DNA of 64,000 nt, taken from contig CAZSTP010000002.1 of assembly GCA_964609325.1 (NCBI GenBank), positions 4,984 through 68,983 of the forward strand, in the 5' to 3' direction. Shown in pieces: positions 4,774 through 32,754 of the stretch. Made by a program: the position numbers and the translations under genes. The notes beneath the pieces were generated by a model. It did no database searches, was not told where the DNA came from, and was given only the letters and a program-made list of their open reading frames with translations. The stretch is from an uncultured Novosphingobium sp. (GTDB lineage Bacteria; Pseudomonadota; Alphaproteobacteria; Sphingomonadales; Sphingomonadaceae). How positions within the stretch are numbered: position 1 is the stretch's first letter; each line of letters starts with the position of its first letter.

Positions 4774-6590
4774 CTGCGGAGGCTTTCTATCGCGCGACAC
4801 ACCATCCAGCCAAAGGCAGGCAGCGCAACGCGCACGCTGCCGGGCGCTGTCACCGCAGCAGGACAAGGGCCGGTCAAGGCGTCAAGGTGAGTTGCGGCAG
4901 GGCCGATCGTGCTGTTCACATCAATCGGGTGGCCGGCGGTGTTAAAGGCGATGAAGATTTCTGCGCCGGTAGCAGGATCAAACCGCGAAACCGAAAACAG
5001 CCCCGGTGTTTGCGCATAATCGCGCACAATCTGGGCACCCCCCGACAGTGCAGGCTGGGACCTGCGGATCGCGCTCAGGCTTGCAATAACGCGGAACAGC
5101 GGATGGTTTTCATCGAAATTGCTGCTCGCGGTTGTGGCAGCCGTGCCGATCAAGGCATTGTCATTGTACGATGCAACGCGTGACGGGAACATATCTTCAC
5201 GTGCCGCCTGATCGCCGCCATCGCCGACAAAGCCTTGTTCATCACCGTAATAGATCACCGGCGCGCCGCGCAGCGTCAATAGCATGGCATGGCCAAGCGT
5301 AACCCGGGCCAGCAGTTCATTGCCTGCAATATCGGGGCGGTCTTCCTTCAATAGCGTTGAAAACCGGCCCATATCGTGATTGCCAAGGAATGTGGGCAAC
5401 CGCCGCGCAGCAGCTTCACCACCTTCATACAGGACATCACCGTCAAACATTTCGGCCAGCACCACCGTGCCTTTGCCCTTGCCCAGAACATCGCGCACTG
5501 CCGCCTGAAACGCGAAGTCGAGCACGGCGGGCAAATGGTCGCGCCGAGTATATTGCGCGATGTATCCGCTGTCGGGCGATGTGCGGTATACCTCTCCGAA
5601 CAAGGCAAAATTTGGCAACCCTTGCGCGATGGCGCTCGTTTGGATTGCCGGTATAAATGCCTGCCAGAAACCGGGATCGACATGGCGCGCGGTATCAATG
5701 CGATAGCCGTCGATCTTGGTACGCTCGATCCAGCCCTTGTAGATTTCGATCATCCCGTCGCGCACCTGTGGATGTTCGGTGAACAGATCATCAAGGCCTG
5801 AAAAATCGCCAAAGCGGGAATCTTCACCGGTAAAAGTGGAATCGCCGCGATTGTGATAGAATACCGGATCATTTAGCCACACTGGCACTTTCACTGCGCG
5901 CTCTGCTGGCGGTACGTACGGTGTGTAAGCGTAGGCAGGGTCGGTCAGCTTGGCAAAGTTTGCGGTATTGCTGTCCTGATCGCCTGCAAACCCTTGATTA
6001 ACCGGCGTTCCGGCCAATCCGCCCTTGCGCGAATAGGGATAATCCGCGCGCGAACGATACGCGTATTTTGTCGCCTCACCTTCCTTGTAACGGATCACAT
6101 CGGCGGTGTGATTGGTGATGATGTCGATGTAGACTTTCATCCCGAGGCTGTGCGCCTTGCTCACCAGCGCCTCGAATTCCGCTTCGGTGCCCAGATGGGC
6201 GTCAGGCCGCGTAAAGTCTGTCACCCAATAACCGTGATAGCCTGCGCTTTCCATGCCCGCAGGCCCTTGAACAGCCTTGTTCTGGAAGATGGGCGCAATC
6301 CAAAGCGCAGTAATGCCAAGCTTTTGCAAATAGGGCAGCTGTGCCACCAGACCCTTGAAATCACCGCCGTGAAAGAAGCCCTTGTCGGCCGGATCAAACC
6401 CCGTAACCAGCCGGTCACCCTTCAAATAGCCCTTGTCGTTCTTGCTATCGCCATTCTCGAAACGGTCTGGCAGGACGAAATAGATGACCTCATCGGACAC
6501 ATCGCGCGCGCGGTAATCGGGGACCGATTGCGCATTGGCCACACCTGCACAAAGCAGCGTTGCAAACAGTGTGGTTAACAGGTGTTTCAT
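4770..6590 (-). CDS. Secreted GH13 alpha-amylase/neopullulanase-like enzyme
   Basis: Signal peptide; IYFVLPDRFENGD, GYHGYW, DGYRIDTARH, FGEV, FLGNHDMGRF. Confidence 0.9.
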   Translation of the reverse strand: MKHLLTTLFATLLCAGVANAQSVPDYRARDVSDEVIYFVLPDRFENGDSKNDKGYLKGDRLVTGFDPADKGFFHGGDFKGLVAQLPYLQKLGITALWIAPIFQNKAVQGPAGMESAGYHGYWVTDFTRPDAHLGTEAEFEALVSKAHSLGMKVYIDIITNHTADVIRYKEGEATKYAYRSRADYPYSRKGGLAGTPVNQGFAGDQDSNTANFAKLTDPAYAYTPYVPPAERAVKVPVWLNDPVFYHNRGDSTFTGEDSRFGDFSGLDDLFTEHPQVRDGMIEIYKGWIERTKIDGYRIDTARHVDPGFWQAFIPAIQTSAIAQGLPNFALFGEVYRTSPDSGYIAQYTRRDHLPAVLDFAFQAAVRDVLGKGKGTVVLAEMFDGDVLYEGGEAAARRLPTFLGNHDMGRFSTLLKEDRPDIAGNELLARVTLGHAMLLTLRGAPVIYYGDEQGFVGDGGDQAAREDMFPSRVASYNDNALIGTAATTASSNFDENHPLFRVIASLSAIRRSQPALSGGAQIVRDYAQTPGLFSVSRFDPATGAEIFIAFNTAGHPIDVNSTIGPAATHLDALTGPCPAAVTAPGSVRVALPAFGWMVCRAIESLRR

Positions 6591-8095
6591 GCAGCAACCC
6601 CGCGTACAACTTGATGAAGCACTTCGATGTGGCGCGGCATCAGCCGCACCTCTTCGACCAGTTCGGCCTCGGTCCGGCCCAGAAGATCGCGCAAATCATC
6701 TTCGGACAGAAGATCGGCAATGGGATTATACCCCTCAGCTTCAACGCCTTGGCCTGCCAGAACCTGAAACCAGCCCACTTCGGTGAACAGTTCCTCATGC
6801 TCGCGGTGGATAAAGCCTGTCGCCTGCCACTGCGCCAATTTCCGCTGCAAGGTTTCGGGCAATTCCATGGCGCGCATCGCGTCCCAGAACGGTTCGCCCA
6901 TGCGCTGGTTGGCCCAGTAATGCAGGACGATGAAATCGCGGATTCGGGTCCATTCGAACCGTGCCTGCATGTTGAAATGGTCGATCATTACAGGATTGGA
7001 TTTGCCTGCAGGCAACATCGACAGGAAACGGCTGATCGCGCTCTGCACCAGATGGATGCTAGTTGATTCCAATGGCTCCATGAAGCCTGCGGCCAAGCCG
7101 ATGGCCAAGCAATTGCGGTTCCAATGTTTGCGCCGCATACCTGTGGTGAAGCGCAAGGGACGCGGATCGGCCAGTGGTTGGCCATCGAGATTGGCCAGCA
7201 AGGTCGCCGCCGCCTCATCATCGGAAATCATGGCGCTGGAATAGACATGACCGTTGCCGATGCGGTGTTGCAACGGGATGCGCCATTGCCATCCGCACGT
7301 CCTCGCGGTGGAGCGGGTATAGGGTGTAAAATCACCCCCGCTTGAACAAGGCACTGCTACTGCCCGATCACAGGGCAAGTAGTGCGTCCAGTCGTCAAAT
7401 CCGGTTTCAAGCGCGCTTTCTATCAGAAGCCCGCGAAAGCCGGTGCAATCAATGAAGAAGTCGCCTGCAATCCGTCGCTCACCATCCAGCACGAGAGCGG
7501 CAATATCACCACTTTGGCCATCGCGCTCAACCGTGCGGATCAGGCCTTCAGTCCGTATCACGCCACGCGCCTCGGCAAAGCGGCGCAAGTAAGCGGCATA
7601 ACTCCCTGCATCGAAATGATAGGCATAGGCCATTTCTGGCGATTGCGGCGTGCGACGGCCGCGTTGCATCCGCAGAGTGCGCGCAGCCAGTTCGTTCAAT
7701 GAATAGCGTTGCAGGGGTTTGGCAAAGCCTAGCTGCTTTGCGCGCAACCAGTGGTGCTGGAATGGCAGCAGACCCACCGAACGCCCGATGTTGCCAAAAG
7801 CATGCATGTAGCTTTCGCCTTCACGCTGCCAGCCTGCAAATTCGATGCCCAGTTTGAACGAGCCGTTAGTCTCACGCAGGAACTCGGCCTCATCAAGGCC
7901 CAGCGCAGCGTTGAACAAATGAATTTGCGGGATTGTGGCTTCGCCCACGCCCACCGTGCCGATGTCTTGGCTTTCAACCAGTTCGATCTGCGTTCTCGGA
8001 GGGGCGAAACGCGAAAGAGCTGCAGCGGTCATCCAGCCGGCCGTTCCACCGCCCGCAATGACAAACCGCATGCCGCCATGTTCTTGATTGCCCAC
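6587..8095 (-). CDS. Flavin-dependent (tryptophan-halogenase-family) halogenase
   Basis: GGGTAGW, GVGEAT, SFKLGIEF (catalytic Lys), GWQWRIP, GFMEPLES. Probable GTG start at 8095 behind AGGAG (alternative ATG at 8071). Confidence 0.93.
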   Translation of the reverse strand: MGNQEHGGMRFVIAGGGTAGWMTAAALSRFAPPRTQIELVESQDIGTVGVGEATIPQIHLFNAALGLDEAEFLRETNGSFKLGIEFAGWQREGESYMHAFGNIGRSVGLLPFQHHWLRAKQLGFAKPLQRYSLNELAARTLRMQRGRRTPQSPEMAYAYHFDAGSYAAYLRRFAEARGVIRTEGLIRTVERDGQSGDIAALVLDGERRIAGDFFIDCTGFRGLLIESALETGFDDWTHYLPCDRAVAVPCSSGGDFTPYTRSTARTCGWQWRIPLQHRIGNGHVYSSAMISDDEAAATLLANLDGQPLADPRPLRFTTGMRRKHWNRNCLAIGLAAGFMEPLESTSIHLVQSAISRFLSMLPAGKSNPVMIDHFNMQARFEWTRIRDFIVLHYWANQRMGEPFWDAMRAMELPETLQRKLAQWQATGFIHREHEELFTEVGWFQVLAGQGVEAEGYNPIADLLSEDDLRDLLGRTEAELVEEVRLMPRHIEVLHQVVRGVAA

Positions 8096-18723: not shown

Positions 18724-21090
18724 TCACCCACCCTCCTCCGTCGCCGCCGCACTGGGCGAAGTCTCGAACAGCGCAGCCTCTTTTCCGGCGACGTCCACGC
18801 GGGCGATTTCTGCGCGCAAAGCTGTGATGTCGGCGTCCTTCCAAGCGGCACTATTTCGCACAGCATATGCGGTGACCTTCTGCCGGAACCCACTTGGCGT
18901 AGGCGTTTTGAAAGTCCGAAGCTGGACCAGACCGGCGCGTTGCAGCGCATAACGTTTGGCAGAACCGCGAGGCCGCTCCTCACCCATGGCCGTGTCGATC
19001 TCTTCGGACGTGATAACATCCACCGGCCAGTGCGCGGCAATATCGAATGCCACCTGTTCGCTGTCCGAACGAACCCGCGCCAAAAGGTTTGTCTTCGCCG
19101 CAGTCATGGGCGCCCTCATCCCGGGCTTGAACGACGAGATGTCCCGCTGCCGGAGGAACTCGGCCACAGATGCAATGAACACCGGATCGTCGCGCAGGCG
19201 ATAAAGGTCCCAGTAGTAGGCATCCGGCCTCGGATCGTCGTCGCACCGCACGACAACGAAGCGCCTGTCGGCATCTTCCAACGGGATAGCCGCCTCGCTG
19301 TTGGAAAAAATCAGCCAGCGGCACGCGTTCCACTCCACGTGTTGGCGTCCGTACTTCGGGTTGATCGTCCGGGTCTCTTCGGTAACGAGCTGCTTAAGGT
19401 CCTGCTGCATCTGATACTTGCGACTGCCATCGCCCTCGTCGATCTCGTCCACCACCGCGAGCAACTTTCCCGCCAGTACGCCATTGTAGCCGTCACGCAG
19501 CGTCCGGCCCAATGGAAACGACAGCGCCGCGTAGCCAACGAAGATGCGTCCGAGAATAGACGAGATGAGATTACGCCCCATGCCGGTTCGCGGCGCAATG
19601 TGGAGGAAGGCGATAGACGGCAGTTCGCCCGGCTTCTGCACCGCATGGGCGACCCAGTCCAAGAACAATGCTGTCTCAGCACCAAACAGCCACTCCACAT
19701 GGTCGATGAACGGCTGCGCCCAACGGTCCCAGTCGGCTGGTGGCGTGGTGGCGCGCAGCCCCCGCCACGTGTTCAGCGCGTTCCTGCCGTCGGGTGCTGA
19801 GGTTACGACCCCTGCACCCGCCCGAAAGGTTTGCGTAGCGACCGTGCGCCTTGTCGGGTTAGCCAACCATGCCTCGGCAAGCTTCTTGCGGATCGTACGT
19901 TTACCGCCGCCGCGAACCGACACTTCGGCCACGAACATGGAGGCGGCGGTGCTGACCTTGAAGTCGGCCTGCGACAGCACGTGACCCGGCCTTGTGGTGT
20001 CGGCGACCTGCGAGCCATCTTCGATCAGAACGCAGTCGCGCAGCATGGCGTCCAGCGACCAGATTTTTGTCTTGTCAGTTGGCCCCTCGGCGACGGCCAG
20101 ATCACGCTCGCGCTCCCGTTCATGCTTGCGGGCATGCATGGCAACTTCATCATCGCTCAGCGCCCGCTCAATCGCTCGACGGGCTGCGCGCTCCGGATCG
20201 GCTTCGTCCAGACAATGCGCGCTGATGCCGTTGACGCCGTTCAACAATACGCCCGCCACCTGCTGCTGCGTCAAACCTTCACGAAGGGCCTCGCAAGCGA
20301 AATGGAACACATCCTTGCTGCGATCCATCCCGTCGGGCTCCTCGATGATGCGCCGCAAGTAGCTTTCCTCCGGCAGGCCAATGTCGTCGGCTGTTAGCAA
20401 CTGTACGTCGCCCAACGCGACACTGGCACGCGCTACTTGTGCCTTCTCAGCGGGCGGCGGGAAGGCCACCTGCAACTGCGACACGTCGCTGACTGTGCCG
20501 TCGTCGGGTACATAGATGCATGACAACTTAGCTTTTCGCCCAATGCTGCGCTTGCGCTCGTCCGGCCAGTTGATAGTGCCCGGTACGCGAAGCAGGCGCG
20601 ACGCGTCGTGTGTGCCCGTGTCGCCGCCCAGAGCCTTGATGAGGCCACGGTTGATCGCCTCGACCTCGTCGACGCTGACGCCCTTCGTGAGCCGCCAGAG
20701 GCCTTGCCAGCCGTTTCCAGACCAATTGATGGTGCTAGGACCCGCCGCCTCCAACCGGCTATACGCGGCCTCGCCGTCTTCCGTTGTGAATGCCGCGCAC
20801 CCCTTGGGGGGATCGATGTCGACGTGGGCGAAACGGACGCCGATGACGTCTGCCTTGGTCGGTTTCGCGTTCACGCCGTCGCACACGCGATTGACTGTGT
20901 AGTAGACGTTGAAGCCTTCAGCGTTCTTTTCCGAAGCCCATACAACTGCAGCGTTGACGTCTGTGCCGAAGTCTTTGCCCTCGGGGGGGCGCTGCTTCTT
21001 TGGATCGATGACTGTCAGGTGGATCTGCTCCGCTATCGTTTTTTCGAAGAACTCACGGACATCGTCTGATTTCTGCTCGGGGGCGCTCAT
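18724..21090 (-). CDS. Primase-helicase: N-terminal RepB-like (AEP) primase, C-terminal DUF5906/NrS-1-type helicase
   Basis: Primase motifs VYYTVN, HVDID, SGNGWQGLW, DASRLLRVPGT, DRS. Helicase motifs GMGRN (atypical Walker A), VVDEI (Walker B), INPKY, IFSN. Confidence 0.82.
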   Translation of the reverse strand: MSAPEQKSDDVREFFEKTIAEQIHLTVIDPKKQRPPEGKDFGTDVNAAVVWASEKNAEGFNVYYTVNRVCDGVNAKPTKADVIGVRFAHVDIDPPKGCAAFTTEDGEAAYSRLEAAGPSTINWSGNGWQGLWRLTKGVSVDEVEAINRGLIKALGGDTGTHDASRLLRVPGTINWPDERKRSIGRKAKLSCIYVPDDGTVSDVSQLQVAFPPPAEKAQVARASVALGDVQLLTADDIGLPEESYLRRIIEEPDGMDRSKDVFHFACEALREGLTQQQVAGVLLNGVNGISAHCLDEADPERAARRAIERALSDDEVAMHARKHERERERDLAVAEGPTDKTKIWSLDAMLRDCVLIEDGSQVADTTRPGHVLSQADFKVSTAASMFVAEVSVRGGGKRTIRKKLAEAWLANPTRRTVATQTFRAGAGVVTSAPDGRNALNTWRGLRATTPPADWDRWAQPFIDHVEWLFGAETALFLDWVAHAVQKPGELPSIAFLHIAPRTGMGRNLISSILGRIFVGYAALSFPLGRTLRDGYNGVLAGKLLAVVDEIDEGDGSRKYQMQQDLKQLVTEETRTINPKYGRQHVEWNACRWLIFSNSEAAIPLEDADRRFVVVRCDDDPRPDAYYWDLYRLRDDPVFIASVAEFLRQRDISSFKPGMRAPMTAAKTNLLARVRSDSEQVAFDIAAHWPVDVITSEEIDTAMGEERPRGSAKRYALQRAGLVQLRTFKTPTPSGFRQKVTAYAVRNSAAWKDADITALRAEIARVDVAGKEAALFETSPSAAATEEGG

Positions 21091-21341
21091 GACGCACCTA
21101 CTGCGCGCAAGCCGCCCAATTGCATGGCCTTCCGAAGATACGGCGCTGACGCCTCCGCTAACTCATGCGACAAGTCCTCAATTTCCGCCCACGGGGGAAG
21201 CGTGGGATACCAACGATAGCCCACAGTATGGTGGCCGTCGTTTTCGCGAACCAAGATCTCAACAGCGTACTTGGGCGTAATACGAGCGCGGCCTCGCATG
21301 ACGGCACGGTGGTGCTCATCGTTGATATAGGCTATATGCAT
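21087..21341 (-). CDS. Small hypothetical protein of the mobile element
   Basis: ATG 21341 behind GGAG; its stop overlaps the primase start (ATGA). Confidence 0.55.
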   Translation of the reverse strand: MHIAYINDEHHRAVMRGRARITPKYAVEILVRENDGHHTVGYRWYPTLPPWAEIEDLSHELAEASAPYLRKAMQLGGLRAVGAS

Positions 21342-21352
21342 GTCAGGTCTCC

Positions 21353-21395
21353 AAGGGGCGGTGTCGGTTGGGCCTGCACCGCCCCTTTTCATTTT
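21353..21395 (+). terminator. Hairpin with a T-tract on the strand antisense to the element genes
   Basis: AAGGGGCGGTG-N13-CACCGCCCCTT followed by TTCATTTT on the plus strand. Confidence 0.5.
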
Positions 21396-21410
21396 GGATT
21401 GTGCGGCTGG

Positions 21411-21626
21411 TCAGGCTACGCTTTGCGCTGCGCTAACGGCGCTGGTTGACGACACGAGGCGGCTTTCCAGCCAGCTGTCGAGATCGTTGCGGCGGTAGCG
21501 CACAGCTCCGCCAAGTTTCGCGAAGAACGGGCCTTCACCCGTCAACCTAAACCGCTCCAAAGTGGGCTTTCCGAGACGCACATACTGCGCCGCCTCGGTC
21601 GTCGTCATGATATCGGTGGTCATCAT
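21411..21626 (-). CDS. AlpA/excisionase-like helix-turn-helix protein
   Basis: 71 aa; MTTTEAAQYVRLGKPTLERFR...GP.F.KLGGAVRYRRNDLDSWL. Confidence 0.88.
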   Translation of the reverse strand: MMTTDIMTTTEAAQYVRLGKPTLERFRLTGEGPFFAKLGGAVRYRRNDLDSWLESRLVSSTSAVSAAQSVA

Positions 21627-21722
21627 CGGTTGCCTCCTATCTGTTTGGCAACCACTTCTCTTAATCAGGCTTTTTCGGAAATATACGCGAGTTATTTGCG
21701 CAAAAAATTCGCGTTGCCTGTA

Positions 21723-22283
21723 TCACTTCCCTCGACGCGTACCCGGGTCGCGCCGGGGCACCCTATCGAGGTGTTCCTTTAGTGCGTTTAGTTGCTCAGG
21801 GTTGGCCTGTGCCCATGCTGCCCCCATTTCAGTCAATACATGAGCCTCGGGGCCCTCCTTCACGTACTTTGCCCGCCCTTTCGAGACCGTCGAAGCCTTG
21901 CCAGCGTACCCTGCCTCGGCACCGACGGCGTTGGCGGTGATATTGTAGGCTTCCTCGGAGCCTATACCCAACGCACCTTGAAGAAACGCCGCATTTGGAT
22001 GAGCAACGCGTTCGGTGAATTTCGTCATGACCTTTGTCGGAAGCGCACCCGGCCCGTCAAGCCGACGCAACGCAACCCGTGCCGCGAGAACCTGTATCGT
22101 TGTCGGCAACGGCACGCCCTCACTGGTCAGCCTCCAGACCATAAGGTCCACCCAGTTGTCATCTTCGTCTTTGACGAATTCGTCTATATGCTCGAGCATC
22201 TCAAGGCCAAGCGCTGTACCTGCAAAAACTCCCAGCTCGCGCTCCAACTGCTCGACCAATGTTTCTCCTTGCCTTTCAGTCAT
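21723..22283 (-). CDS. Hypothetical protein, translationally coupled to the integrase
   Basis: ATG 22283 overlaps the integrase stop (ATGA); 186 aa with no motif I recognise. Confidence 0.6.
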   Translation of the reverse strand: MTERQGETLVEQLERELGVFAGTALGLEMLEHIDEFVKDEDDNWVDLMVWRLTSEGVPLPTTIQVLAARVALRRLDGPGALPTKVMTKFTERVAHPNAAFLQGALGIGSEEAYNITANAVGAEAGYAGKASTVSKGRAKYVKEGPEAHVLTEMGAAWAQANPEQLNALKEHLDRVPRRDPGTRRGK

Positions 22284-23587
22284 GCCCGTACCTCCAGCCG
22301 CACGATATTCGTCCGGTTTATAACGGCCTTCAGCCCCTCGACATGGGCAGACCATGCCTCCAATGCGCTGCGTTTCTCGGCAGCCCAGTCGTGGCGCTGG
22401 TAGACACCGGCCACGCCGCCCTTTGCACCGCTCACGTGGTTTAACACTGCCTCCGTTACTTCGAACCGAACGCCCAGCCTTTGTAGGCCTGTAGCCACCG
22501 TGCGCCGCAGGTCGTGTACTCGCCAATCTGGTAGCGTGCCTCCATCGTGCGCAGCAGCGATTGTATCGTCCAACGCCCGCTTCGCCTTGCTGAAGCCAGA
22601 AATAGAGTTCCTGCCCGTGGTAGTAAGGACATAGCCATTCTGCGGCCACTCACGGCCACCAGCCAAGCCATCCAGTTCCGCAATAGCAGCCTTCGATAGC
22701 GGTACAATGTGAGCGCTCCCGTTTTTTGCCCGATGGGCTGGGATGGTCCATACGCCAGCGCCACGGTCAAGTTCTGCCCAACAGGCACCCGCAACTTCCG
22801 ATTTGCGCTGCCCGGTTAGGATTAGCAGCCGATATAATGGCCCCCACGGCGCGGACAGGCTTTCGGAGGCAGTCCAGACAGACAGCAATTCTGCGTCCTC
22901 CAGCACTCTGTCCCGCGCGGCTGGCGCCTCAGGCTTGTCCATGGACAACAAAGGGTTTGCCGAGACGTACCGGCGCTTCATCGCCCAATTAAATAAGACA
23001 GAGGCATACGCAAACACGTTGCGGCGCATGGCGCGTTGCTGAACCGGGATTGCGTCAATAACAGCTTGAAGATCCGCATACTCGATGTGCGGCATGGGTT
23101 TGGTGCCCAACGCAGGCTTCAGGTGCCGCCTCACGACCATCTCTGCCATGTTCACGCTTGACGGCCTTCGGCCCTTCTCTAGCTCGTAGTGCTGCAGCCA
23201 AAGATCGGCCAACCGAGTGAACGCAAGATCAGCCTCGACGCGCTCCCGCTCTTGACGCTTGCGCACAGCCTCGTCCTTCGCTGCCAGTAACTCTGCTTCC
23301 TGCTCGCGCGGATCTGTGCCTGCCGCGACCATAGCGGCCAACTCCTGAGCCCGCTTGCGCGCTTGATCAGGCGTTAGTTCGCCGTGCCTACCGATAGTGT
23401 ACTTCTTGGGAGCCGTCTGAGATGCCTGCCCTCGCCGGGCTATGCGGTATCGATATAGATATACCTTGCCGCCCGCTGGAGTGACTTTCAAGCCGAAGCC
23501 CGGCAAACGATCATCCCAATAGGTCTCGTCACGATCGCTCGGCTGGACGCCATCGACAGAAACCTTGCTGATCTTGATCTTCGCCAT
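22280..23587 (-). CDS. Tyrosine recombinase/integrase with N-terminal arm-DNA-binding domain (P4-like)
   Basis: N-terminal YWDDRLPGFGLKV; catalytic residues appear intact: TGQR, HDLRRT, LNH, GVY. Confidence 0.95.
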   Translation of the reverse strand: MAKIKISKVSVDGVQPSDRDETYWDDRLPGFGLKVTPAGGKVYLYRYRIARRGQASQTAPKKYTIGRHGELTPDQARKRAQELAAMVAAGTDPREQEAELLAAKDEAVRKRQERERVEADLAFTRLADLWLQHYELEKGRRPSSVNMAEMVVRRHLKPALGTKPMPHIEYADLQAVIDAIPVQQRAMRRNVFAYASVLFNWAMKRRYVSANPLLSMDKPEAPAARDRVLEDAELLSVWTASESLSAPWGPLYRLLILTGQRKSEVAGACWAELDRGAGVWTIPAHRAKNGSAHIVPLSKAAIAELDGLAGGREWPQNGYVLTTTGRNSISGFSKAKRALDDTIAAAHDGGTLPDWRVHDLRRTVATGLQRLGVRFEVTEAVLNHVSGAKGGVAGVYQRHDWAAEKRSALEAWSAHVEGLKAVINRTNIVRLEVRA

Positions 23588-23811: not shown

Positions 23812-24951
23812 CTATTTCCAGATCGCGCGGGGCATGCGGAAAGGCAGCATTCCCTGCACAATGGTTGAACGGAACCGGTTGAGCGACAGGCTTTCATGCA
23901 CCGCTTCGACATTCTCGCCAAACAGCCGCGTCGAAAGCTTTGATCGCGCATAGAACGGGGCATCGACCCAGGTTTTGGCGACACGCGGCACATATCCCCG
24001 GTCAGCCCGGGTAAGGCGTTCGATCAGCCACGCGCTGCGGGGCAGACGTGCCGGGGCGGGCTGTTCGATATCGTGCCAGTTGCCCATCCGATCCAAACGC
24101 AGCGCCAGATCGAAAGGCGTGCCATCGCGCCGCTTGCCTTCGTAAAGCACCGCCACATCATTGCGCAGATGCGCACGCGACCAGTGCCAGTCGTTGAAAC
24201 CGTCTTCCAGCGCCTCATCGCCAAAATTGGAATCGAAATAGCCTGCGCCCGACCAGCGTAGGCCCGGGTCTGTCATCGAGACCTCGACATGGGCGCGCGG
24301 TGCCACGGGATGCCAGCGATGACGCCCTTCGGGATCAAGCGCAAAGGCCGTGTCGCCGATCATTTCGGGGCGCACCCGGATCGTGCCGCGCACTTTGTAG
24401 GGCAGCGGGGAGGAAACCTCGGCAATGTCGATCACCAGTGTTTCACCGTCCCAACGCATGGCGCTGGGGCCGACCGAGAAATGGTGCTTGGCACGATCAA
24501 CATCGCGCGCGGTACGCTCTGTCATCGCCCAAGCCGATCCGCGCGGACCATTGAGTGATATGTTGATGGCGCAATGGTTGTCGGGGCTGTGTCGCCCGCT
24601 AAGCTTGTAATACGGCGAAAAAACGCTGCCGACAAAGGCGATCACCGTCAGGCCATAAGCACCATCTGCACTGGTCGCATCAATATACCACCAGGCGTAG
24701 CCCCCCGGCGCAACCGCGCAATCAAAGCGTGGCCCTTGAGCCACCATACGGCGGCTGGTCGGACAGCGGACATAGGGCTCCTCACTTTGACGCAGCAGCA
24801 TCCAGGGATCCGTCGCCCGTTGGGGCGCGGGTTCGAGCACGCCGCCAACACGGGCAAGGCCGGTCCACAACGGGCTCCACCCTTCCAGAGAAACAGGCTC
24901 GCGTCGGACCGTCCGTGCAGCGAAATCGTGTTGAGCATAGTGCGCTTCCAT
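23812..24951 (-). CDS. crtC: Carotenoid 1,2-hydratase (hydroxyneurosporene synthase)
   Basis: GGYAWWYIDA, IAFVGSVFSPYY, HRWHP, GYFDSNFG, WHWSR, APFYARS, HESLSL.RF. Start uncertain (24951 or 24747). Confidence 0.85.
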   Translation of the reverse strand: MEAHYAQHDFAARTVRREPVSLEGWSPLWTGLARVGGVLEPAPQRATDPWMLLRQSEEPYVRCPTSRRMVAQGPRFDCAVAPGGYAWWYIDATSADGAYGLTVIAFVGSVFSPYYKLSGRHSPDNHCAINISLNGPRGSAWAMTERTARDVDRAKHHFSVGPSAMRWDGETLVIDIAEVSSPLPYKVRGTIRVRPEMIGDTAFALDPEGRHRWHPVAPRAHVEVSMTDPGLRWSGAGYFDSNFGDEALEDGFNDWHWSRAHLRNDVAVLYEGKRRDGTPFDLALRLDRMGNWHDIEQPAPARLPRSAWLIERLTRADRGYVPRVAKTWVDAPFYARSKLSTRLFGENVEAVHESLSLNRFRSTIVQGMLPFRMPRAIWK

Positions 24952-25057
24952 GTCCCGTTCCCCGCTCCAGCCATTCCATTGGCAACGCCTGACGACGGAC
25001 GATAGCCCGCACAGCAATGGCACCTTGCTCAAACGCCCGTTGACGCCATGCCGACTA

Positions 25058-25101
25058 TGTCCATTTTATTGGACATATACAACTGTCTAAATTTTTGGAT
25101 T
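25058..25101. promoter_or_regulatory. Paired PpsR/CrtJ-type boxes upstream of crtC
   Basis: TGTCCATTTTATTGGACA (25058-25075, TGT-N12-ACA), an 8-bp spacer, then degenerate TGTCTAAATTTTTGGATT (25084-25101). Confidence 0.75.
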
Positions 25102-25169: not shown

Positions 25170-26309
25170 CTATGGAGCCCCGTCCTCGTACCAACCCACA
25201 TCACGCGTGGCGACTTCCCCAAATGGCACCCGCTCGGCCATGGCCATGCGCAGGATCGGCCATGAGGTGAACATCATGCTAAGGAACGGCCAGGGATCGG
25301 ATGAATCCCAACTCACATCGCGCGTGGTGAACAATCGGGCAAGTTGGTCTTTGAAACCCTTGCGACGGAACATGGCCAATTGGGCTTCGGTCAAGCAGGC
25401 GTAGAATTGTTGCAAGTGCCGTTGGGGACGGACGCGTACCATCGCTTTGCCCAAGGGATCAAGCACGGCGCGGGCGATATCCTCGGCTTCCCAGAAGTGC
25501 AGGCCGCTGGTGGCGCGGGGGTTGCATTCGATGCCCCACACTGTGCCCGTGGCATCGACGATGAAATCGAAGGCGATGAAACCGCTCCACCCCGATGCGG
25601 TCACAAATGCCTCGATCCACGCGCTGATTGCGGGGCTCTCGACGCGCTCGAAACTGATGGCGACCGAACCTGCCATCACCCTGCCCCGATACACCATCGT
25701 GGCCACCGCGCGGCCATCGCGCGCGATGGTGCAACTGCTGAATTCGTGCCCCGCGATAAAGCGTTGTGCGACAGCCGGGGCGGCAGGATCGGCCTCGGGC
25801 AGAGCCACGCCTTTCACCAAGATGCGCACTCCGCGTCCCGAACAGGAAAACACTGGTTTGACCACCACATCGCTGCCTTGAGCCAATGCGGAAGCCTCCG
25901 GTGTACCCAGAGCGTACGTTTCGGGCACCGTAAGCCCTATCGCCCGCGCGGCCTCGATAAACCCGGCCTTGTCATGCAGCGCGACCACCTGCTCGGGCGG
26001 CATCGTGAACACGCGGACGCCGGGACCGAAAAGTTCACGTGCATGGGCCACGTGCATGGTCTCTTCGGAAACCGGCACGACCAGCTCGACGCATTCATCC
26101 GCTACGATCTTTGCGATGGCAGCATGATAGGCTGCCTTGCCCGCGCTGGGCGGCGGCACTGCGAATTCGCGCGCGACATGGCGCGATGCTCCCGTCAGTG
26201 TCCGGCCAAACGGATCAGCCACCAGTACCCGGCATCCGGCGCGGCTGAAGCCCCTTGCCAGATCAAGCGCCTTGGGCAAGCGTCCCAGCGTCAGCAAAAC
26301 AGTAGTCAT
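25170..26309 (-). CDS. ATP-grasp fold enzyme
   Basis: Start ATG 26309 overlaps the P450 stop (ATGA). LVVPVSEE, HDK..F, VVKPVFSCSGRGV, QRFIAG.E, FDFI, IECNPRATSG. Confidence 0.85.
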   Translation of the reverse strand: MTTVLLTLGRLPKALDLARGFSRAGCRVLVADPFGRTLTGASRHVAREFAVPPPSAGKAAYHAAIAKIVADECVELVVPVSEETMHVAHARELFGPGVRVFTMPPEQVVALHDKAGFIEAARAIGLTVPETYALGTPEASALAQGSDVVVKPVFSCSGRGVRILVKGVALPEADPAAPAVAQRFIAGHEFSSCTIARDGRAVATMVYRGRVMAGSVAISFERVESPAISAWIEAFVTASGWSGFIAFDFIVDATGTVWGIECNPRATSGLHFWEAEDIARAVLDPLGKAMVRVRPQRHLQQFYACLTEAQLAMFRRKGFKDQLARLFTTRDVSWDSSDPWPFLSMMFTSWPILRMAMAERVPFGEVATRDVGWYEDGAP

Positions 26310-27754
26310 GGTGCCACGCGGCTGACCCGCACCATGATCTGCTGCGCCGGGCGCGTGGTAAGCCGGGCTGCGGGACGTACGGCTTGGGGTTTGATGATCT
26401 CGAAATCGAAGCGTCGGAACAGCCGCGCGATCAGCAATACAGCTTCGGCCTGCGCAAAGGCTGCGCCCGCACATACTCTCGGGCCAAGGCCGAAGGGTAT
26501 GTAGGCGCCCGGGGTGAGTTCAGCTTCGCGTTCGGGCAGGAAGCGGTCTGGATCAAAGCGGTGCGGATCGCGCCAATAGCGCGCGTGGCGGTGCAGCACC
26601 CACGGCGCGACCATGACCAAAGCGCCGCGCCGCACTTTGCGTTCGCCAATCGTGGTTGCTTCGGTGGCAACGCGCGGCAGAAAGGTGATCGGCGGGTAGA
26701 GCCGCAAGGTTTCGCGAAAGACGTTGCGGATCGTCGGCAACTGCTTGGTCATCTCGAACGTTATCGGCTGCGAACTGCCCGCCAAAGCATGGATTTCGGC
26801 GCGGGCACGCGCAACCAGCGCGGGTTGCATGGCCATCAGATAAAAGGCCCATGTCAGCGCACTGGCGCTGGTTTCATGGCCGGCCAAAAACAACACGCCA
26901 AGCTGGTCGATCAGCTCTTCGCGGGTGAAGGCGGTTTGCGTGAAGTCATCGCGCGCGGCGACAACGGCTGCGGCGATATCATCAAACCGTTCGCCGTCGG
27001 GGCCAAGATGGGTGTCGAGCAAATCCCCCAGATGGCGGCGGATCGTGTTGCAGGCAGCCAATACGCTCTCGCTTTGCGGAACCTTGGTCCATGCCGGGTC
27101 CATGATCAGGCGACGGATTTCCACTTGCGCCACGCTGTGCTCGAAGATCGTGAACGCATCGAACACATCATGCGCGGCCTGCGTTTCAAGGCCGGTGCTG
27201 AACACGGTGCGGCAGATGATGTCCGCCGTCAGATGGCTCATCGCCAGATCGAGCGACAGGGCGGTTTGTCCGCTTGCATGCCGATCCAGCATATCCTCGC
27301 AGGCCTGCGCCCCTTCCTCCATCGCCGGAAAGGCGCGGTTGACCCGCATCATGGTGAAGGCCGGATCGATCATCCGGCGCTGGCGACGCCAGGTATCGCC
27401 CGACGACACGAAGATCGAATCCCCGATGAGAGGCGCCAAAGCATCCACCATCAAATCGCTCTTGGGAAAGATGCCTTCAGGATCGGACAGCACGCGGCGC
27501 ACCTGATCGGGCCGGTTAACGATCAGAATCTGGCGGCGCGAATAGCCCAGCGGGCCAACCTCGTTGCGATAGGCATTCGCGGGCAAGAGGCTGAGCAAAT
27601 CGCCATCACCGCGCAGTGCCACACGCAGCAGCGCCAGCACCGCAGCGCTGGCCTTTGGCCGTGGCGGCACAAAGGCGCGCTGCGACGTTCCGGATGGCTC
27701 GCGGCGGTTTGCCGGAAGGGGTGCGTTTCGGGTCAAAAGATCATCCATGAGCAT
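26306..27754 (-). CDS. Cytochrome P450
   Basis: I-helix AGHETS, ETLRLYPP (ExxR), FDPDRF, heme motif PFGLGPRVCAG. ATG 27754 behind GAAGGG. Confidence 0.95.
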   Translation of the reverse strand: MLMDDLLTRNAPLPANRREPSGTSQRAFVPPRPKASAAVLALLRVALRGDGDLLSLLPANAYRNEVGPLGYSRRQILIVNRPDQVRRVLSDPEGIFPKSDLMVDALAPLIGDSIFVSSGDTWRRQRRMIDPAFTMMRVNRAFPAMEEGAQACEDMLDRHASGQTALSLDLAMSHLTADIICRTVFSTGLETQAAHDVFDAFTIFEHSVAQVEIRRLIMDPAWTKVPQSESVLAACNTIRRHLGDLLDTHLGPDGERFDDIAAAVVAARDDFTQTAFTREELIDQLGVLFLAGHETSASALTWAFYLMAMQPALVARARAEIHALAGSSQPITFEMTKQLPTIRNVFRETLRLYPPITFLPRVATEATTIGERKVRRGALVMVAPWVLHRHARYWRDPHRFDPDRFLPEREAELTPGAYIPFGLGPRVCAGAAFAQAEAVLLIARLFRRFDFEIIKPQAVRPAARLTTRPAQQIMVRVSRVAP

Positions 27755-27760
27755 CCCTTC

Positions 27761-27803
27761 AATCAACTAAACTTTACACCGTAATTGTCCAGTGCAATAG
27801 ACA
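27761..27803. promoter_or_regulatory. Paired PpsR/CrtJ-type boxes in the divergent P450 / DUF2306-crtD promoter region
   Basis: Degenerate AATCAACTAAACTTTACA (27761-27778), a 7-bp spacer, then TGTCCAGTGCAATAGACA (27786-27803, TGT-N12-ACA). Confidence 0.75.
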
Positions 27804-27824: not shown

Positions 27825-28586
27825 ATGGATCTGTTCTTGTTCCAATGCCTGATTGCCGCACACATCGTGGCCGGAGCGACAGGCGCGGTGGCGTTCTGGA
27901 TCCCGGTGATCGGCCGCAAGGGTAGCGTCAATCATCGCAAATGGGGCCGAGTGTTTACCCGCACGATCCTGTTCACCGGATGCCTTGCCGTGCTGATGAG
28001 CCTGTTTACGCTGGCCAATCCGATGGGCGTCCACCCTCACCTCGTCGGCCGCTTCGATTCCGGATTTGTGCGCGGCATCTTCGGCTGGATGATGCTGCAC
28101 AACGCGATCCTGACGATCAATCTGGCGTGGTACGGCTGGTTGTGCGTGATCAACCGCCGCAATGTTGCTGCCAACCGCACATGGCTCAATATCGGCCTGC
28201 AGTATGCGGTGATGATCGCAGCGGTGGTCTGTGCATGGGAAGGCGCGCAAATCAACCAGCCGCTGATGATGGCGATTGCCGCGGTCGGGATGGCCACCGG
28301 CATTACCAATCTGGTGTTCCTTTATGCGCGCAATCCCTCGCCGGTCGATTGGCTGAAAGAACATGTCAAGGCGTTGGTAGGGGCCGGTATCTCGGTTTAC
28401 ACTGCGTTTCTGGCCTTTGGCGCTGTGCGGCTGGCACCCTCGCTGGCGCTGCAACCGGCGATGTGGGCTGTGCCGCTCAGCGTGGGTCTGGCCATCCTGA
28501 TCTTCCATCGCATGCGCATCGATAAAGAGGCAGGACTGGGCCTGTTCCGGCTGCTGCGCCAACGGCAGACCGTCGATGCAGACTGA
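27825..28586 (+). CDS. Polytopic membrane protein, DUF2306-like
   Basis: RBS AAGGGG; about 6-7 hydrophobic segments; HIVAG...H.KWGRVF pattern. Family name from recall. Confidence 0.7.
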   Translation: MDLFLFQCLIAAHIVAGATGAVAFWIPVIGRKGSVNHRKWGRVFTRTILFTGCLAVLMSLFTLANPMGVHPHLVGRFDSGFVRGIFGWMMLHNAILTINLAWYGWLCVINRRNVAANRTWLNIGLQYAVMIAAVVCAWEGAQINQPLMMAIAAVGMATGITNLVFLYARNPSPVDWLKEHVKALVGAGISVYTAFLAFGAVRLAPSLALQPAMWAVPLSVGLAILIFHRMRIDKEAGLGLFRLLRQRQTVDAD

Positions 28587-28592
28587 CCTGCA

Positions 28593-30110
28593 ATGACACG
28601 CACGACACGCCGCGTTGTCGTGGTCGGGGCCGGTATGGGCGGGCTTGCGGCTGCGGCTGATCTGGCACGCAGCGGCGCCGCGGTCACCGTGATCGAGCGG
28701 GCGCAAACTTGCGGTGGCAAGATGCGCCAGATCATGGCGGGCGGCAGGCCGGTGGATGCCGGACCCACCGTATTCACCATGCGCTGGATATTCGAGGGCC
28801 TGTTTGCCGATGCGGGCGAAAGGCTGGACGACCATCTGGAACTGATCGCGGCGACAACTTTGGCGCGGCATGCTTGGCGCAGCGGCGGTACGCTGGATCT
28901 TTTTGCCGACATTGCGCAATCCGCCGATGCCATCGGCACCTTTGCCGGGGCAGACGAAGCGCGCGGCTATTTGGCCTTTTGCGCGCGCGGCAAAGATATC
29001 TACGCCACGCTGGCCAGGGACTTCATCGCCTCAGAGCGTCCGTCCGTGCCCGGTCTGGTGGCCCGGCTTGGCCTTGCCCGCCTGCCCGATTTGTGGCGAA
29101 CGATGCCGATGCGCACTTTGTGGGGCGCGCTCGGCGATCATTTCAAGGACCCGCGCCTGCGCCAATTGTTTGGCCGATATGCCACTTATGTGGGCGCATC
29201 GCCGTGGTCAGCTCCCGCCACCCTGATGCTGATCGCGCACGTTGAACAGAACGGCGTCTGGCTGGTCAAGGGCGGCACCCATCGTGTGGCACAGGCAATC
29301 CAGAGCCTTGCACAGCGCCAGGGCGCGCAGTTCCGTTTTGGCGTACAGATGGACCGGATCGTGATCGAGAATGGCCGCGTTGCCGGTGTTATGCTAGACA
29401 CGGGCGAGCGGCTGGATGCAGATGCCGTGGTCTATAACGGAGACATCTCCGCCCTGACCGCAGAGGAACGCCCGGTCCCGGCCACATCGCCCGCCGCACG
29501 GTCGCTCTCGGCTGTAACGTGGTGCCTTTCGGCGCGGACGACCGGGTTTGATCTGGCGCATCACAATGTGTTCTTCGCCGAAGACTATGCCGACGAATTC
29601 ACATCCATCTTTCGCCATCGCCGGATAACTTCCGCACCCACTGTCTATCTGTGCGCACAAGACAGGGGCGAAGGCAGTGCCCATCCGGAAGGTACGCCCG
29701 AACGCATGCTGGCGCTGATTAATGCCCCCGCCGACGGCGACCGGGCACCGCTTGATCAAGCTGCGATTGCCAATCTTGGCGCACGGGCCTTTGGCTTGAT
29801 GGAATCGTGCGGGTTGCAAATCGAGCCGGGCGATGATCCGACCGTGACAACGCCAACCGGGTTCGAGGCCCTGTTCCCGGCAAGCGGCGGCGCGCTCTAT
29901 GGCCGTGCCAACCATGGCATGATGGGGAGTTTTGCGCGGGCAGGAGCATCGGGCAAAGTGCCGGGGCTCTATCTGGCAGGCGGAAGCGTCCATCCCGGCC
30001 CCGGCATCCCGATGGCCACAATGTCCGGGCGCATCGCGGCCGCGCGTATGTTGGCGGATTGGGCAGGCAACCGCAGGACTGTCAGCATTCCTGTCGGTGA
30101 AGGCTTCTAA
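28593..30110 (+). CDS. crtD: 1-hydroxycarotenoid 3,4-desaturase (CrtI/CrtD family)
   Basis: VVGAGMGGL, GGKMR, DAGPTVFTM, FGRYATYVG, HHNVFF, GGSVHPGPGIPMATMSG (CrtD-like rather than CrtI-like); crtC is nearby. Confidence 0.82.
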   Translation: MTRTTRRVVVVGAGMGGLAAAADLARSGAAVTVIERAQTCGGKMRQIMAGGRPVDAGPTVFTMRWIFEGLFADAGERLDDHLELIAATTLARHAWRSGGTLDLFADIAQSADAIGTFAGADEARGYLAFCARGKDIYATLARDFIASERPSVPGLVARLGLARLPDLWRTMPMRTLWGALGDHFKDPRLRQLFGRYATYVGASPWSAPATLMLIAHVEQNGVWLVKGGTHRVAQAIQSLAQRQGAQFRFGVQMDRIVIENGRVAGVMLDTGERLDADAVVYNGDISALTAEERPVPATSPAARSLSAVTWCLSARTTGFDLAHHNVFFAEDYADEFTSIFRHRRITSAPTVYLCAQDRGEGSAHPEGTPERMLALINAPADGDRAPLDQAAIANLGARAFGLMESCGLQIEPGDDPTVTTPTGFEALFPASGGALYGRANHGMMGSFARAGASGKVPGLYLAGGSVHPGPGIPMATMSGRIAAARMLADWAGNRRTVSIPVGEGF

Positions 30111-30117
30111 CCCGCGA

Positions 30118-31332
30118 TCAGCGTGGCGCACCGGTTTGCGGCGGACGTTCGGGCAAGGTCAGCGGATTGAGCGCAGGCTCTCCCAATACCGTGGCGATGG
30201 CTTTGAAAAACGGCACGGGGGGTTTGCCGGTCAGCACCCGCAGGCGATCGGCCAAAGTTGATTTTCCGGCATAGAAGCGTTCGATCAGCGCGGCGTTCAG
30301 ACGGTAAAACCGTTGCAGCACGACATAGCGCAAATGGGGTGCAGCCGTTGCGAACAGCATCTTGGTCAACATGCGGTAGAATCCGCCTGCGCGCCAATGC
30401 TGCCCTGCCCAGCCCCGGCTCCACACTGCCAAAGCCCTGCCCGAAACATCCTTCTGCCGCGCCAGATCGAGCGCAAAGGCCAGTGCCAGCGGGAAGGAAT
30501 AGCCGGTCAACGGGTGCAGCAGACCGGCGCGAACGCCTGCCAGTGCAACGTCGGGCCTTTCATGCACTGCACGAAACGCCTCCCAGTCACCACTGCCCAC
30601 CACCGGCAGGCAACCGCTTTCCTCGCCCAGAATCTCGGCCACTTGCCATCCCGCATCGGCACAATAGGCGGCGATCCGTTCGCGCAGCAGTGGCGCGTCT
30701 ACTTCTGGCCCATCGGCATAGTAAGTGTCTTCGACGAAGACTTCGTTGGCAGAAAACGGCAAGCAATAGACAAAGCGATAGCCATCGTGCTGCGCCACCG
30801 TACCATCCATGACGATCGGGCGTTCCAGCCCATGCGGTTCGGCAGTGCGGACCAATTGGCCAAGGAATTTCTGCCATCCGCCCGCCATATGCGGCAAACC
30901 CGCCGAACCACGCGCATCAATCACCGCGCCAGCTTCAATCATGCGCCCATCGCCAAGCGTGATCCGGTTCGCGGTGACATCGGCAATCTCGCAGCCACAC
31001 AAGACCGCGTCTGCCGGCAGGGCACTGCGTACGGCGGCATCGAGCCGCGCGCTCGTGATGCTGTGATAAGGCGTGCGCAATTGACGGCGACCGCGCGGGA
31101 AGCGCACTTCGTAGTCATCCCACCGCGCCGCGATCAGCGGTTCAACCAGCGCGGTCCCGCCTTCGGGCAAATCTGTCGCAAAAAATGACCAGACATGATT
31201 GCCACCAAGCCGATCGTCGCGCTCTAGAACAAGCACGCGCAGTTCAGGCCGCAACCTGGCCAGCGCCAGTGCGATCAATCCTCCGGCGAGCCCCCCGCCG
31301 AGCACTGCAATGTCTGTGCCACGGTCATTCAT
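30118..31332 (-). CDS. crtY: Lycopene beta-cyclase
   Basis: GGGLAGGLIA, GGNHVWSF, QKFLG, RFVY.LP, EDTYY, HPLTGYS, RFYRL, RFYAG. Confidence 0.92.
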   Translation of the reverse strand: MNDRGTDIAVLGGGLAGGLIALALARLRPELRVLVLERDDRLGGNHVWSFFATDLPEGGTALVEPLIAARWDDYEVRFPRGRRQLRTPYHSITSARLDAAVRSALPADAVLCGCEIADVTANRITLGDGRMIEAGAVIDARGSAGLPHMAGGWQKFLGQLVRTAEPHGLERPIVMDGTVAQHDGYRFVYCLPFSANEVFVEDTYYADGPEVDAPLLRERIAAYCADAGWQVAEILGEESGCLPVVGSGDWEAFRAVHERPDVALAGVRAGLLHPLTGYSFPLALAFALDLARQKDVSGRALAVWSRGWAGQHWRAGGFYRMLTKMLFATAAPHLRYVVLQRFYRLNAALIERFYAGKSTLADRLRVLTGKPPVPFFKAIATVLGEPALNPLTLPERPPQTGAPR

Positions 31333-31569
31333 TCGATGTGAGCCTTAACATGGCCTCCGGTTAATGCAACTGCGCCCCATTACTGCGCCTGCTTCGGGGA
31401 TACCGGACAAGAAGAAGCATGATTGGCCTGCATGTGCGGGGTACAGCTTATGGCGTGTCTGTATAACAAGCCCCACCGCCCCAGGTTATCAACTCCACTT
31501 TTCGGTCGCTGGCCAGAGCTGCAGATTGACTCTATGGCACGTAAAACGCCAACATACCCGGATGCTTTC

Positions 31570-32754
31570 ATGACCAATGATCCAGCCACACTCAACCAGC
31601 AAGGCATGTTGGCATTGCGTCAAGGAGACGCAGCAGGAGCGATCAAGGCCTTTGCTGCGGCGGTTGCGGCAGATCCTGCCGAGGCTATTTTGCACTACAA
31701 TCTTGCCAACGCGTACGCCTTGGCCGGTAACGCGGCGGAGCAGCTGGAGGCGCTAAACGCCGCCCTGGATTGCGATCCCTACATGCCGCACGCACTGCTT
31801 TCGCGCGGCAAGTTGGCCGAGGCTCAGGGCTTTGCAACTGCAGCACTCTCAGATTTCAAGCGCCTGCTGGCCGCCGTGCCCGAAGGCGATACCACTGGCG
31901 GCCCCGGTTTTCAGGCAGGTCTGGTTCATGCGCGGGCAGCAGTAGCGCGCGATACGGCCAATCTGGCGAAACGGCTGGATGCGGTGCAGGCAGAAGCAGA
32001 CGCAGCTGCCACACCAGCCGACGCCGAACGTTTTCGCCATGCGGTTGATCTGCAATTGGGCCGTCGTCGTGCCTATGTTCACCAACCCTTGGTTCTCAAC
32101 TATCCTTATCTGCCTGCGATCCAGTTCTTTGATCGCGGTCTATTCCCTTGGCTGTCGCAACTGGAATCAGCCACCCCGATCATCCGCGAAGAGTTGAAGG
32201 CGCTGCTGAGCAAAGGCGGTGGCGGTTTCGCACCCTATGTCCGCTATCCGCGCGGCGCGCCGGTAAACCAGTGGAGCGAGCTCAATCACAGCAATGCCTG
32301 GGCCGCGACCTTCTTCATCGAGCATGGCGTGCCCAACCCTGCTATGCGCGAACATTGTCCGCAGACGGCGGCGCTGCTTGAAACGCTACCGCTGTTCAAT
32401 CTTCCGGGACGCGGACCGGTCGCCTTCTTCTCCCTGCTAAAGCCCGGCACTGTCATTCCACCACACACCGGTGCAACCAACATCCGTTCGATTGTTCACC
32501 TGCCGCTTATCGTGCCGCAGGGCTGCACCTTCCGCGTTGGCAACGAAACGCGGCCATGGATCGAGGGCGAGGCGTTCGTGTTTGATGATACGATCGATCA
32601 TGAGGCGAAAAATCCCACGACCGAACTGCGCGCCCTGCTGATTATTGATACATGGAATCCGTTCATCAGTGAAGCGGAGCGCCAGCTAATTGGCAACTGG
32701 ATGCGCGAACTTGACGCGCATGGACAAGGTCCGGGAAATTTTTCAGCAGCCTGA
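31570..32754 (+). CDS. TPR-fused aspartyl/asparaginyl beta-hydroxylase family protein
   Basis: N-terminal TPR-like helices; FSLLKPG..IPPHTG.TN, HLPLIVP, FDDTIDHEA. Start uncertain (31570 or 31534). Confidence 0.88.
   Translation: MTNDPATLNQQGMLALRQGDAAGAIKAFAAAVAADPAEAILHYNLANAYALAGNAAEQLEALNAALDCDPYMPHALLSRGKLAEAQGFATAALSDFKRLLAAVPEGDTTGGPGFQAGLVHARAAVARDTANLAKRLDAVQAEADAAATPADAERFRHAVDLQLGRRRAYVHQPLVLNYPYLPAIQFFDRGLFPWLSQLESATPIIREELKALLSKGGGGFAPYVRYPRGAPVNQWSELNHSNAWAATFFIEHGVPNPAMREHCPQTAALLETLPLFNLPGRGPVAFFSLLKPGTVIPPHTGATNIRSIVHLPLIVPQGCTFRVGNETRPWIEGEAFVFDDTIDHEAKNPTTELRALLIIDTWNPFISEAERQLIGNWMRELDAHGQGPGNFSAA

Follow-up and report, generated by a model that had tools for sequence, protein, structure and literature searches.

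Background

The carotene ring hydroxylases of plant plastids, CYP97A3 (LUT5) and CYP97C1 (LUT1), are cytochrome P450s that act on carotenoids, depend on ferredoxin and are soluble or peripheral. In bacteria, the P450s CYP175A1 of Thermus and CYP287A1 of Deinococcus also act on carotenoids; they hydroxylate beta rings and are not known to be linked to photosynthesis genes or to have a ligase partner. Among purple and aerobic phototrophic bacteria, to our knowledge, no P450 has so far been matched to a carotenoid, and we know of no carotenoid-acting P450 associated with an ATP-grasp ligase. Here we describe a P450 gene in a 64,000-nucleotide (nt) stretch of an uncultured Novosphingobium genome (the window), which was first pointed out in a model-made note drawn from sequence only (the earlier note) and which we followed up by computational analysis. 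Together with an ATP-grasp ligase gene and a divergent membrane-protein gene, it forms a three-gene module inserted between crtC and crtD, whose products shape the acyclic end of photosynthetic carotenoids, and we hold with good confidence that this P450 is the carotenoid oxygenase of the module.

For the oxidation of a methyl to a carboxyl group, the three-step P450s ent-kaurene oxidase (CYP701) and amorphadiene oxidase (CYP71AV1) serve as precedents, as does the C30 carotenoic-acid route, in which CrtP/CrtNb and an aldehyde dehydrogenase turn an isoprenoid methyl into a carboxylate that is then conjugated. We compare these systems by mechanism, not by sequence, and the C30 route differs in that it employs CrtI-family oxidases and glycosyl or acyl transferases, with no P450 and no ATP-grasp ligase. 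A further point of comparison is CrtA (spheroidene monooxygenase, NF045923), an O2-dependent late oxygenase of photosynthetic carotenoids which shares the photosynthesis-cluster slot of the module, but is an unrelated His-ligated heme protein (PMC13488962). Reviews up to 2025 leave several oxygenated photosynthetic carotenoids, among them carotenals and carotenoic acids, without assigned enzymes.

A complete P450 related to the plant CYP97 enzymes

The open frame on the minus strand (26306-27766) encodes a full-length cytochrome P450, residues 76-468 of which match PF00067 at 245 bits against a cut-off of 22.8 (E 1.3e-72; Pfam). In an alignment of 16 orthologues (52-88% identity), the I-helix motif AGHETS at residue 291, the K-helix motif ETLR at residue 348 and the PERF-type motif PHRFDPDRF at residue 397 are conserved, and the heme loop with the Cys ligand, FGLGPRVCAG (residues 421-430), keeps its F, G, G, P, C and G in every sequence. 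The gene has both hallmarks of the P450 superfamily, the Cys-ligand heme loop and the I-helix/ExxR/PERF motifs, and is intact, as the earlier note had held. Translation from ATG 27754 would give 482 amino acids (aa) and from ATG 27748 480 aa; because a Shine-Dalgarno-like GAAGGG abuts the former codon and lies 6 nt ahead of the latter, and an identical database protein (P0001) has 480 aa, ATG 27748 is probably the true start, with ATG 27754 possible.

The best relatives of this P450 in the PDB are CYP97A3 (E 2e-47) and CYP97C1 (E 2e-33), which have the same full-length fold and motifs, and we take it to be a soluble, CYP97-like enzyme. Since its 124 identities over 390 positions to CYP97A3 (32%) fall under the rule of >40% amino-acid identity for membership of a CYP family, it is on this count a separate bacterial CYP family near CYP97. 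It further differs from the plant enzymes in being bacterial, in its ATP-grasp and membrane-protein partners and, judging by the distribution of CrtY, in a conserved substrate that would not be a ring. Similarity extends to CYP46, CYP3, CYP4 and CYP102-type lipid oxidases (E 1e-40 to 1e-25; PDB), and neither CYP175A1 nor a Thermus label occurs among the best 60 PDB matches listed. None of the P450 equivalogs named in NCBIfam (among them albaflavenone monooxygenase, ApyO and pentalenene oxygenase) is matched at its cut-off, the best reaching 168 bits against 700.

A three-gene module conserved beside carotenoid genes

Using the P450, we fetched 46 related loci, which span Sphingomonadales, Acetobacteraceae, Roseibium, Anderseniella and Rhabdaerophilum, and mapped the proteins of the window onto them. 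The membrane-protein gene (~250 aa) is divergent from the P450 gene in every one of the 46 loci covering the position, and the ATP-grasp gene adjoins the P450 gene in every locus whose contig reaches far enough. In Sphingomonadales, Acetobacteraceae and Rhabdaerophilum the ligase gene runs in the same direction as the P450 gene, mostly with an overlap; in Roseibium and Anderseniella the two genes converge. On the outer sides, crtD or crtI adjoins the membrane-protein gene and crtC often adjoins the ligase gene. The window holds the same module, with all three genes adjacent and beside crtD and crtC, in the order crtC (-), ATP-grasp (-), P450 (-), membrane protein (+), crtD (+) and a second crtY (-) (Table 1). 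The P450 stop and the ligase start overlap as ATGA (26306-26309), crtD begins 6 nt past the membrane-protein gene, and the crtC and crtD that flank the module are the only copies in the genome.

Table 1 Coordinates of the P450 module, adjoining carotenoid genes and putative operators in the window
Feature	Position	Strand	Remarks
crtC (carotenoid 1,2-hydratase)	23812..25032	-	NF045922 E 3e-92, 309 bits, under the 400 cut-off
Second putative operator pair	25058..25101		Upstream of crtC; TGTCCATTTTATTGGACA, 8-nt spacer, TGTCTAAATTTTTGGATT
ATP-grasp ligase, 379 aa	25170..26309	-	ATG overlaps P450 stop (ATGA)
Cytochrome P450 coding sequence	26306..27754	-	PF00067; motifs conserved; start probably ATG 27748
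PpsR/CrtJ-type operator pair (putative)	27761..27803		P450/membrane-protein intergenic region
253-aa membrane protein	27825..28586	+	~7 helices, conserved histidines; divergent from P450
crtD (1-hydroxycarotenoid 3,4-desaturase)	28593..30110	+	NF045637 649 bits, over the 580 cut-off
Second lycopene beta-cyclase gene (crtY paralogue)	30118..31332	-	TIGR01789 456 bits; adjoins crtD

The module directly follows bchYZ-pufBALMC in a Roseococcus metagenome-assembled genome (MAG) and in one 5.6-Mb contig of the Joint Genome Institute (JGI). The order in Roseibium is bchX-bchC-crtF-crtE-crtD-crtC-crtB-crtI-membrane protein and then, divergently, P450-ligase-bchO-bchD-bchI, and in Rhodobacter this slot, between crtIB and bchO-bchD-bchI, belongs to crtA. 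P450 orthologues share 52-96% identity overall, and the 70-82% identity between different orders suggests lateral spread of the gene. As a separate observation, a 145-aa membrane-protein gene with a VTT/DedA domain precedes crtI in 4 of 4 Acetobacteraceae/Rhabdaerophilum loci (L003-L006, ~5600-7600) and stands directly after pufC wherever pufC is present in them.

A rare accessory of phototrophs with a carotenoid as the likely substrate

The host is an aerobic anoxygenic phototroph, since its assembly carries pufL and pufM (contig C77). Its photosynthesis cluster comprises bchI-bchD-bchO-crtF on contig C134 and bchCXYZ-pufBALMC on C77, and holds neither crtC nor crtD, with none between bchO and crtF; both genes are relocated to the P450 locus. 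The nearest named relative, Novosphingobium sp. AAP83, has a P450 that is 96% identical.

Almost all carriers of the module (29 of 30 genomes) encode pufLM, which was found in 63 of the 301 genomes in an even sample of the host family. The P450 orthologue (E <= 1e-100) is present in the host only among these 301 genomes and in 4 of 401 genomes of the class, and the plasmid collection yielded no orthologue (best identity 38.8%). The module is a rare accessory of phototrophs and not a standard part of the photosynthesis cluster. Because of the gene context, which is invariant across orders, the restriction to genomes with pufLM and the homology to CYP97A3 and CYP97C1, the nearest solved structures, a carotenoid is very likely the substrate of the P450, in support of what had been supposed from the window itself.

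Proposed reaction of the module

The ATP-grasp ligase matches PF02655 (E 1e-7) and NF005315 (253 bits, under its cut-off), and a search of the PDB with its sequence gave no match. The best Foldseek matches to its AlphaFold2 (AF2) model, which has a predicted local distance difference test score (pLDDT) of 89.5, are 2pn1, PylC, PurD, PurK and L-amino-acid ligases (E 5e-17 to 1e-14), and the modelled fold appears nearest to the carboxylate-amine ligases PylC, PurD and L-amino-acid ligases. Since the ATP/Mg residues K152 and E262-x-N264 are invariant, the ligase looks active. The membrane protein has no match in Pfam or NCBIfam, DUF2306 being faint and below cut-off (E 0.72-0.004), and its AF2 model (~7 helices, pLDDT 84.8) finds no match in the PDB by fold (best E 0.17, template modelling (TM) score 0.30), as does its sequence. 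Six polar residues, H13, H37, H70, E179, H180 and H228, are invariant in this protein, which suggests a metal or heme site.

We propose that, with O2 and the electrons of an unlinked ferredoxin system, the P450 attacks a carotenoid of the CrtC/CrtD type on its acyclic part, and that it would be expressed together with crtC and crtD under PpsR-type control. In the reaction that we prefer, a methyl group would be oxidised stepwise to the alcohol, the aldehyde and the acid, the ligase would form the acyl phosphate from the carboxyl and couple it with an amine or alcohol, and the membrane protein would act as a metal-dependent partner enzyme or as an electron donor. The oxidation to an acid is favoured because a carboxylate-using ATP-grasp ligase is translationally coupled to the P450. 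An acyclic shared substrate is favoured because 14 of the 30 carrier genomes lack a CrtY-type cyclase and yet keep the P450 (60-74% identity) with the same partners, which places the common reaction on the acyclic end or the polyene chain; outside the Sphingomonadales-type group, all carriers are without CrtY, bar one marginal match (E 1e-11) in one Roseibium genome. Taken as a whole, our best explanation, from the carotenoid-tailoring module and its oxygenase to the repression by PpsR and the reaction outlined here, stands at about an even chance. The scheme of methyl-to-carboxyl oxidation plus ligation is tentative, with the balance somewhat against it.

Several points weigh against this proposal. 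The position attacked and the number of oxidation steps are purely our inference, and the ATP-grasp enzyme might instead form an ester with a newly introduced hydroxyl, in the manner of the ester-forming VanA. No redox partner is linked to the P450: domain profile scans detected no ferredoxin or reductase domain in any gene between 22280 and 32754, just as had been remarked at the outset. No pigment chemistry was found in the literature for any carrier organism. Furthermore, two class-level P450 matches of 52-53% identity form a sister clade that lacks both the ligase and the membrane protein, so that the P450 reaction would not depend intrinsically on them, the ligase not being strictly required; a single hydroxylation or ketolation is equally compatible. 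The absence of crtA from carriers may also be partly a matter of lineage, with published Sphingomonadales photosynthesis clusters being without crtA (PMC3176799) and published crt gene sets of Acetobacteraceae listing none (PMC10715153).

We consider it possible, if rather unlikely, that some aerobic anoxygenic phototrophs of several alphaproteobacterial orders make an undescribed carotenoid in which an acyclic methyl is oxidised to a carboxyl by the P450 and ligated to an amino compound or alcohol. If so, this would be the first carotenoid conjugate made by an ATP-grasp enzyme and the first bacterial carotenoid methyl oxidase, with the histidine-rich seven-helix membrane protein as a partner of a novel type, whether metal enzyme or electron donor. 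A conjugated carotenoic acid would represent a new reaction type for carotenoid biochemistry and might lie behind the spectral tuning or photoprotection of oxic light-harvesting complexes. Our literature search found no paper on a P450 or ATP-grasp gene in these crt clusters, and the gene family provides a testable set of candidates in the cultivable Novosphingobium sp. AAP83, N. fuchskuhlense, Dankookia rubra, Paracraurococcus ruber and Roseibium.

CrtA and the sister clade

An alternative that we consider unlikely is that the P450, with or without the membrane protein, replaces CrtA and, when oxygen is present, places a keto or hydroxy function on the 1-hydroxy/1-methoxy-3,4-didehydro acyclic end, at C-2 or C-4. 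This would fit the position of the module in the bchIDO-crtIB slot of Roseibium and the mutual exclusion of crtA and the ligase-type module, crtA being found in none of the 31 module genomes. All carriers are aerobic phototrophs, of which keto-carotenoids are typical, and P450s are generally known to form ketones via two hydroxylations. However, the sister P450s (loci L094 8497-15379 and L093 8483-10710) are overlapped by an upstream crtA (NF045923, 308 and 295 bits), indicating translational coupling, and one of these loci, from marine Rhodospirillaceae/Hwanghaeella-like bacteria, lies between bchIDO and crtIB. CrtA is thus coupled to the P450 there and not replaced by it, which makes the same reaction unlikely and argues that the P450 does something different from CrtA; replacement would also leave the ATP-grasp ligase without a role. 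On present genomes, the P450 family appears to pair either with CrtA or with the membrane protein and ligase. In the marine Rhodospirillaceae locus (L094), crtA-P450 is followed by an ACT-domain gene, a GMC oxidoreductase, a Zn-dependent alcohol dehydrogenase and crtI-crtB; we did not use the GMC and Zn-dependent alcohol dehydrogenase genes as evidence.

Distribution relative to carotenal producers

The earlier note had suggested that the P450 could oxidise a side methyl, as in the cross-conjugated aldehydes of bacteriorubixanthinal or rhodopinal-type pigments. Oxidation of an in-chain methyl (C-19 or C-20) to the aldehyde of bacteriorubixanthinal, rhodopinal or gemmatoxanthin-type pigments is a role that we regard as distinctly unlikely. 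The P450 sits with crtC and crtD, the builders of the methoxylated or hydroxylated acyclic end, its carriers are aerobic phototrophs, and the note's premise that such aldehydes lack an assigned enzyme agrees with reviews, which still list those of rhodopinal and bacteriorubixanthinal as unknown (PMC10604819, PMC8342508, PMC12696874). Bacteriorubixanthinal is a light-harvesting carotenoid reported for Erythrobacter and Porphyrobacter (PMC3176799; bioRxiv 10.1101/2023.09.27.559767). The orthologue, however, is absent from 62 of the 63 pufLM-positive Sphingomonadaceae genomes sampled. Those without it, named via their PufM proteins, include Blastomonas/Sphingomonas ursincola, Erythrobacter sp. 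SDW2, Erythrobacter insulae, Citromicrobium bathyomarinum, Qipengyuania, Allopontixanthobacter, Polymorphobacter, Sandaracinobacteroides, Thermaurantiacus, Glacieibacterium and Novosphingobium pokkalii, and the best P450 matches in these named non-carriers are 26-38% identical and lie away from crt genes. The PufM of E. insulae clusters with Porphyrobacter MAGs, and none of 121 genomes of the E. insulae genus matches the P450 at E <= 1e-60, a query that recovers the host and others.

Because the orthologue is missing from the genomes sampled of Erythrobacter, the genus known for bacteriorubixanthinal, the P450 cannot be the general aldehyde-forming enzyme of this pigment, and we reject that role on phyletic grounds; the bacteriorubixanthinal enzyme of Erythrobacter is to be sought elsewhere. 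The link to rhodopinal is not supported either, since rhodopinal producers are anaerobes, unable to use an O2-dependent P450. For all of these pigments, an aldehyde end product would leave the coupled ligase without a substrate. Loss of crtF was also rejected as a distinguishing trait, a crtF-like O-methyltransferase gene (PF00891) being found a few kilobases (kb) from pufLM in carriers and non-carriers alike.

Other substrates

It is very unlikely that the module modifies a non-carotenoid such as a quinone, the bacteriochlorophyll tail, a hopanoid or a fatty acid, with its position among crt genes reflecting co-regulation with the photosystem. The resemblance to lipid oxidases noted above would suit this explanation, but crtD, crtI or crtC are immediate neighbours in every locus despite different flanks across at least 4 orders, and the sister clade is overlapped by crtA. 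Most improbable of all is a ring hydroxylase like CYP97A3, CYP175A1 and CYP287A1 acting on a beta ring from the second CrtY: although the best solved homologues are beta- and epsilon-ring hydroxylases and the crtY paralogue lies 2.4 kb from the P450 in the host, we reject ring hydroxylation, which had also been put forward, as the conserved role because of the 14 carriers without CrtY and because the extra crtY is confined to the AAP83-like clade.

Putative control by PpsR

The region between the P450 and membrane-protein genes contains a perfect TGT-N12-ACA box (27786-27803), a 7-nt spacer and a half-degenerate TGT-N12-ATT box (27761-27778, read on the P450 strand). This leaves 6 nt between the pair and ATG 27754, or 12 nt if ATG 27748 is the start, consistent with the close placement before the P450 start described previously. 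The arrangement is a twin of that before crtC, each having one perfect and one half-degenerate box 7-8 nt apart, and a sigma-70-like promoter on the minus strand (25091-25063) overlaps the crtC pair. By counts, the boxes do not exceed chance, with 11 single boxes in the window against 9.4 expected and 10 relaxed pairs in the genome against 5-13 in shuffles. A perfect box occurs at the same intergenic position in ~25 Sphingomonadales-type related loci and in L006, and none was found at that position in the Roseibium/Anderseniella loci or in L003-L005. It is position and conservation, not number, that speak for a function of the boxes. The three-gene module would probably be repressed by PpsR together with crtC and crtD. 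In the same region, an imperfect inverted repeat (27743-27760/27813-27830) corresponds to the two divergent translation-initiation regions, with GAAGGG...ATG on each strand.

Neighbouring genes

The second crtY shares only 50% identity with the copy that adjoins crtI on contig C213, and genomes with two copies are limited to the AAP83-like clade (G000, G304-G306); the product of the second gene may serve specifically to cyclise monocyclic photosynthetic carotenoids. Adjoining it (31423-32754, +) is a gene of the aspartyl/asparaginyl beta-hydroxylase family fused to tetratricopeptide repeats (TPR), which has an 89% identical neighbour in Novosphingobium sp. AAP83 (L007). Immediately to the left of crtC, the minus strand (18724-23587) encodes a tyrosine integrase that carries an Arm DNA-binding domain, along with a primase/helicase-like DUF5906 protein of 788 aa; the region resembles a small integrated element at the edge of the carotenoid locus. 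Further along the window, ARAGORN predicts a tRNA-Ile with the anticodon AAT (60204-60275, -), which is unusual for bacteria.

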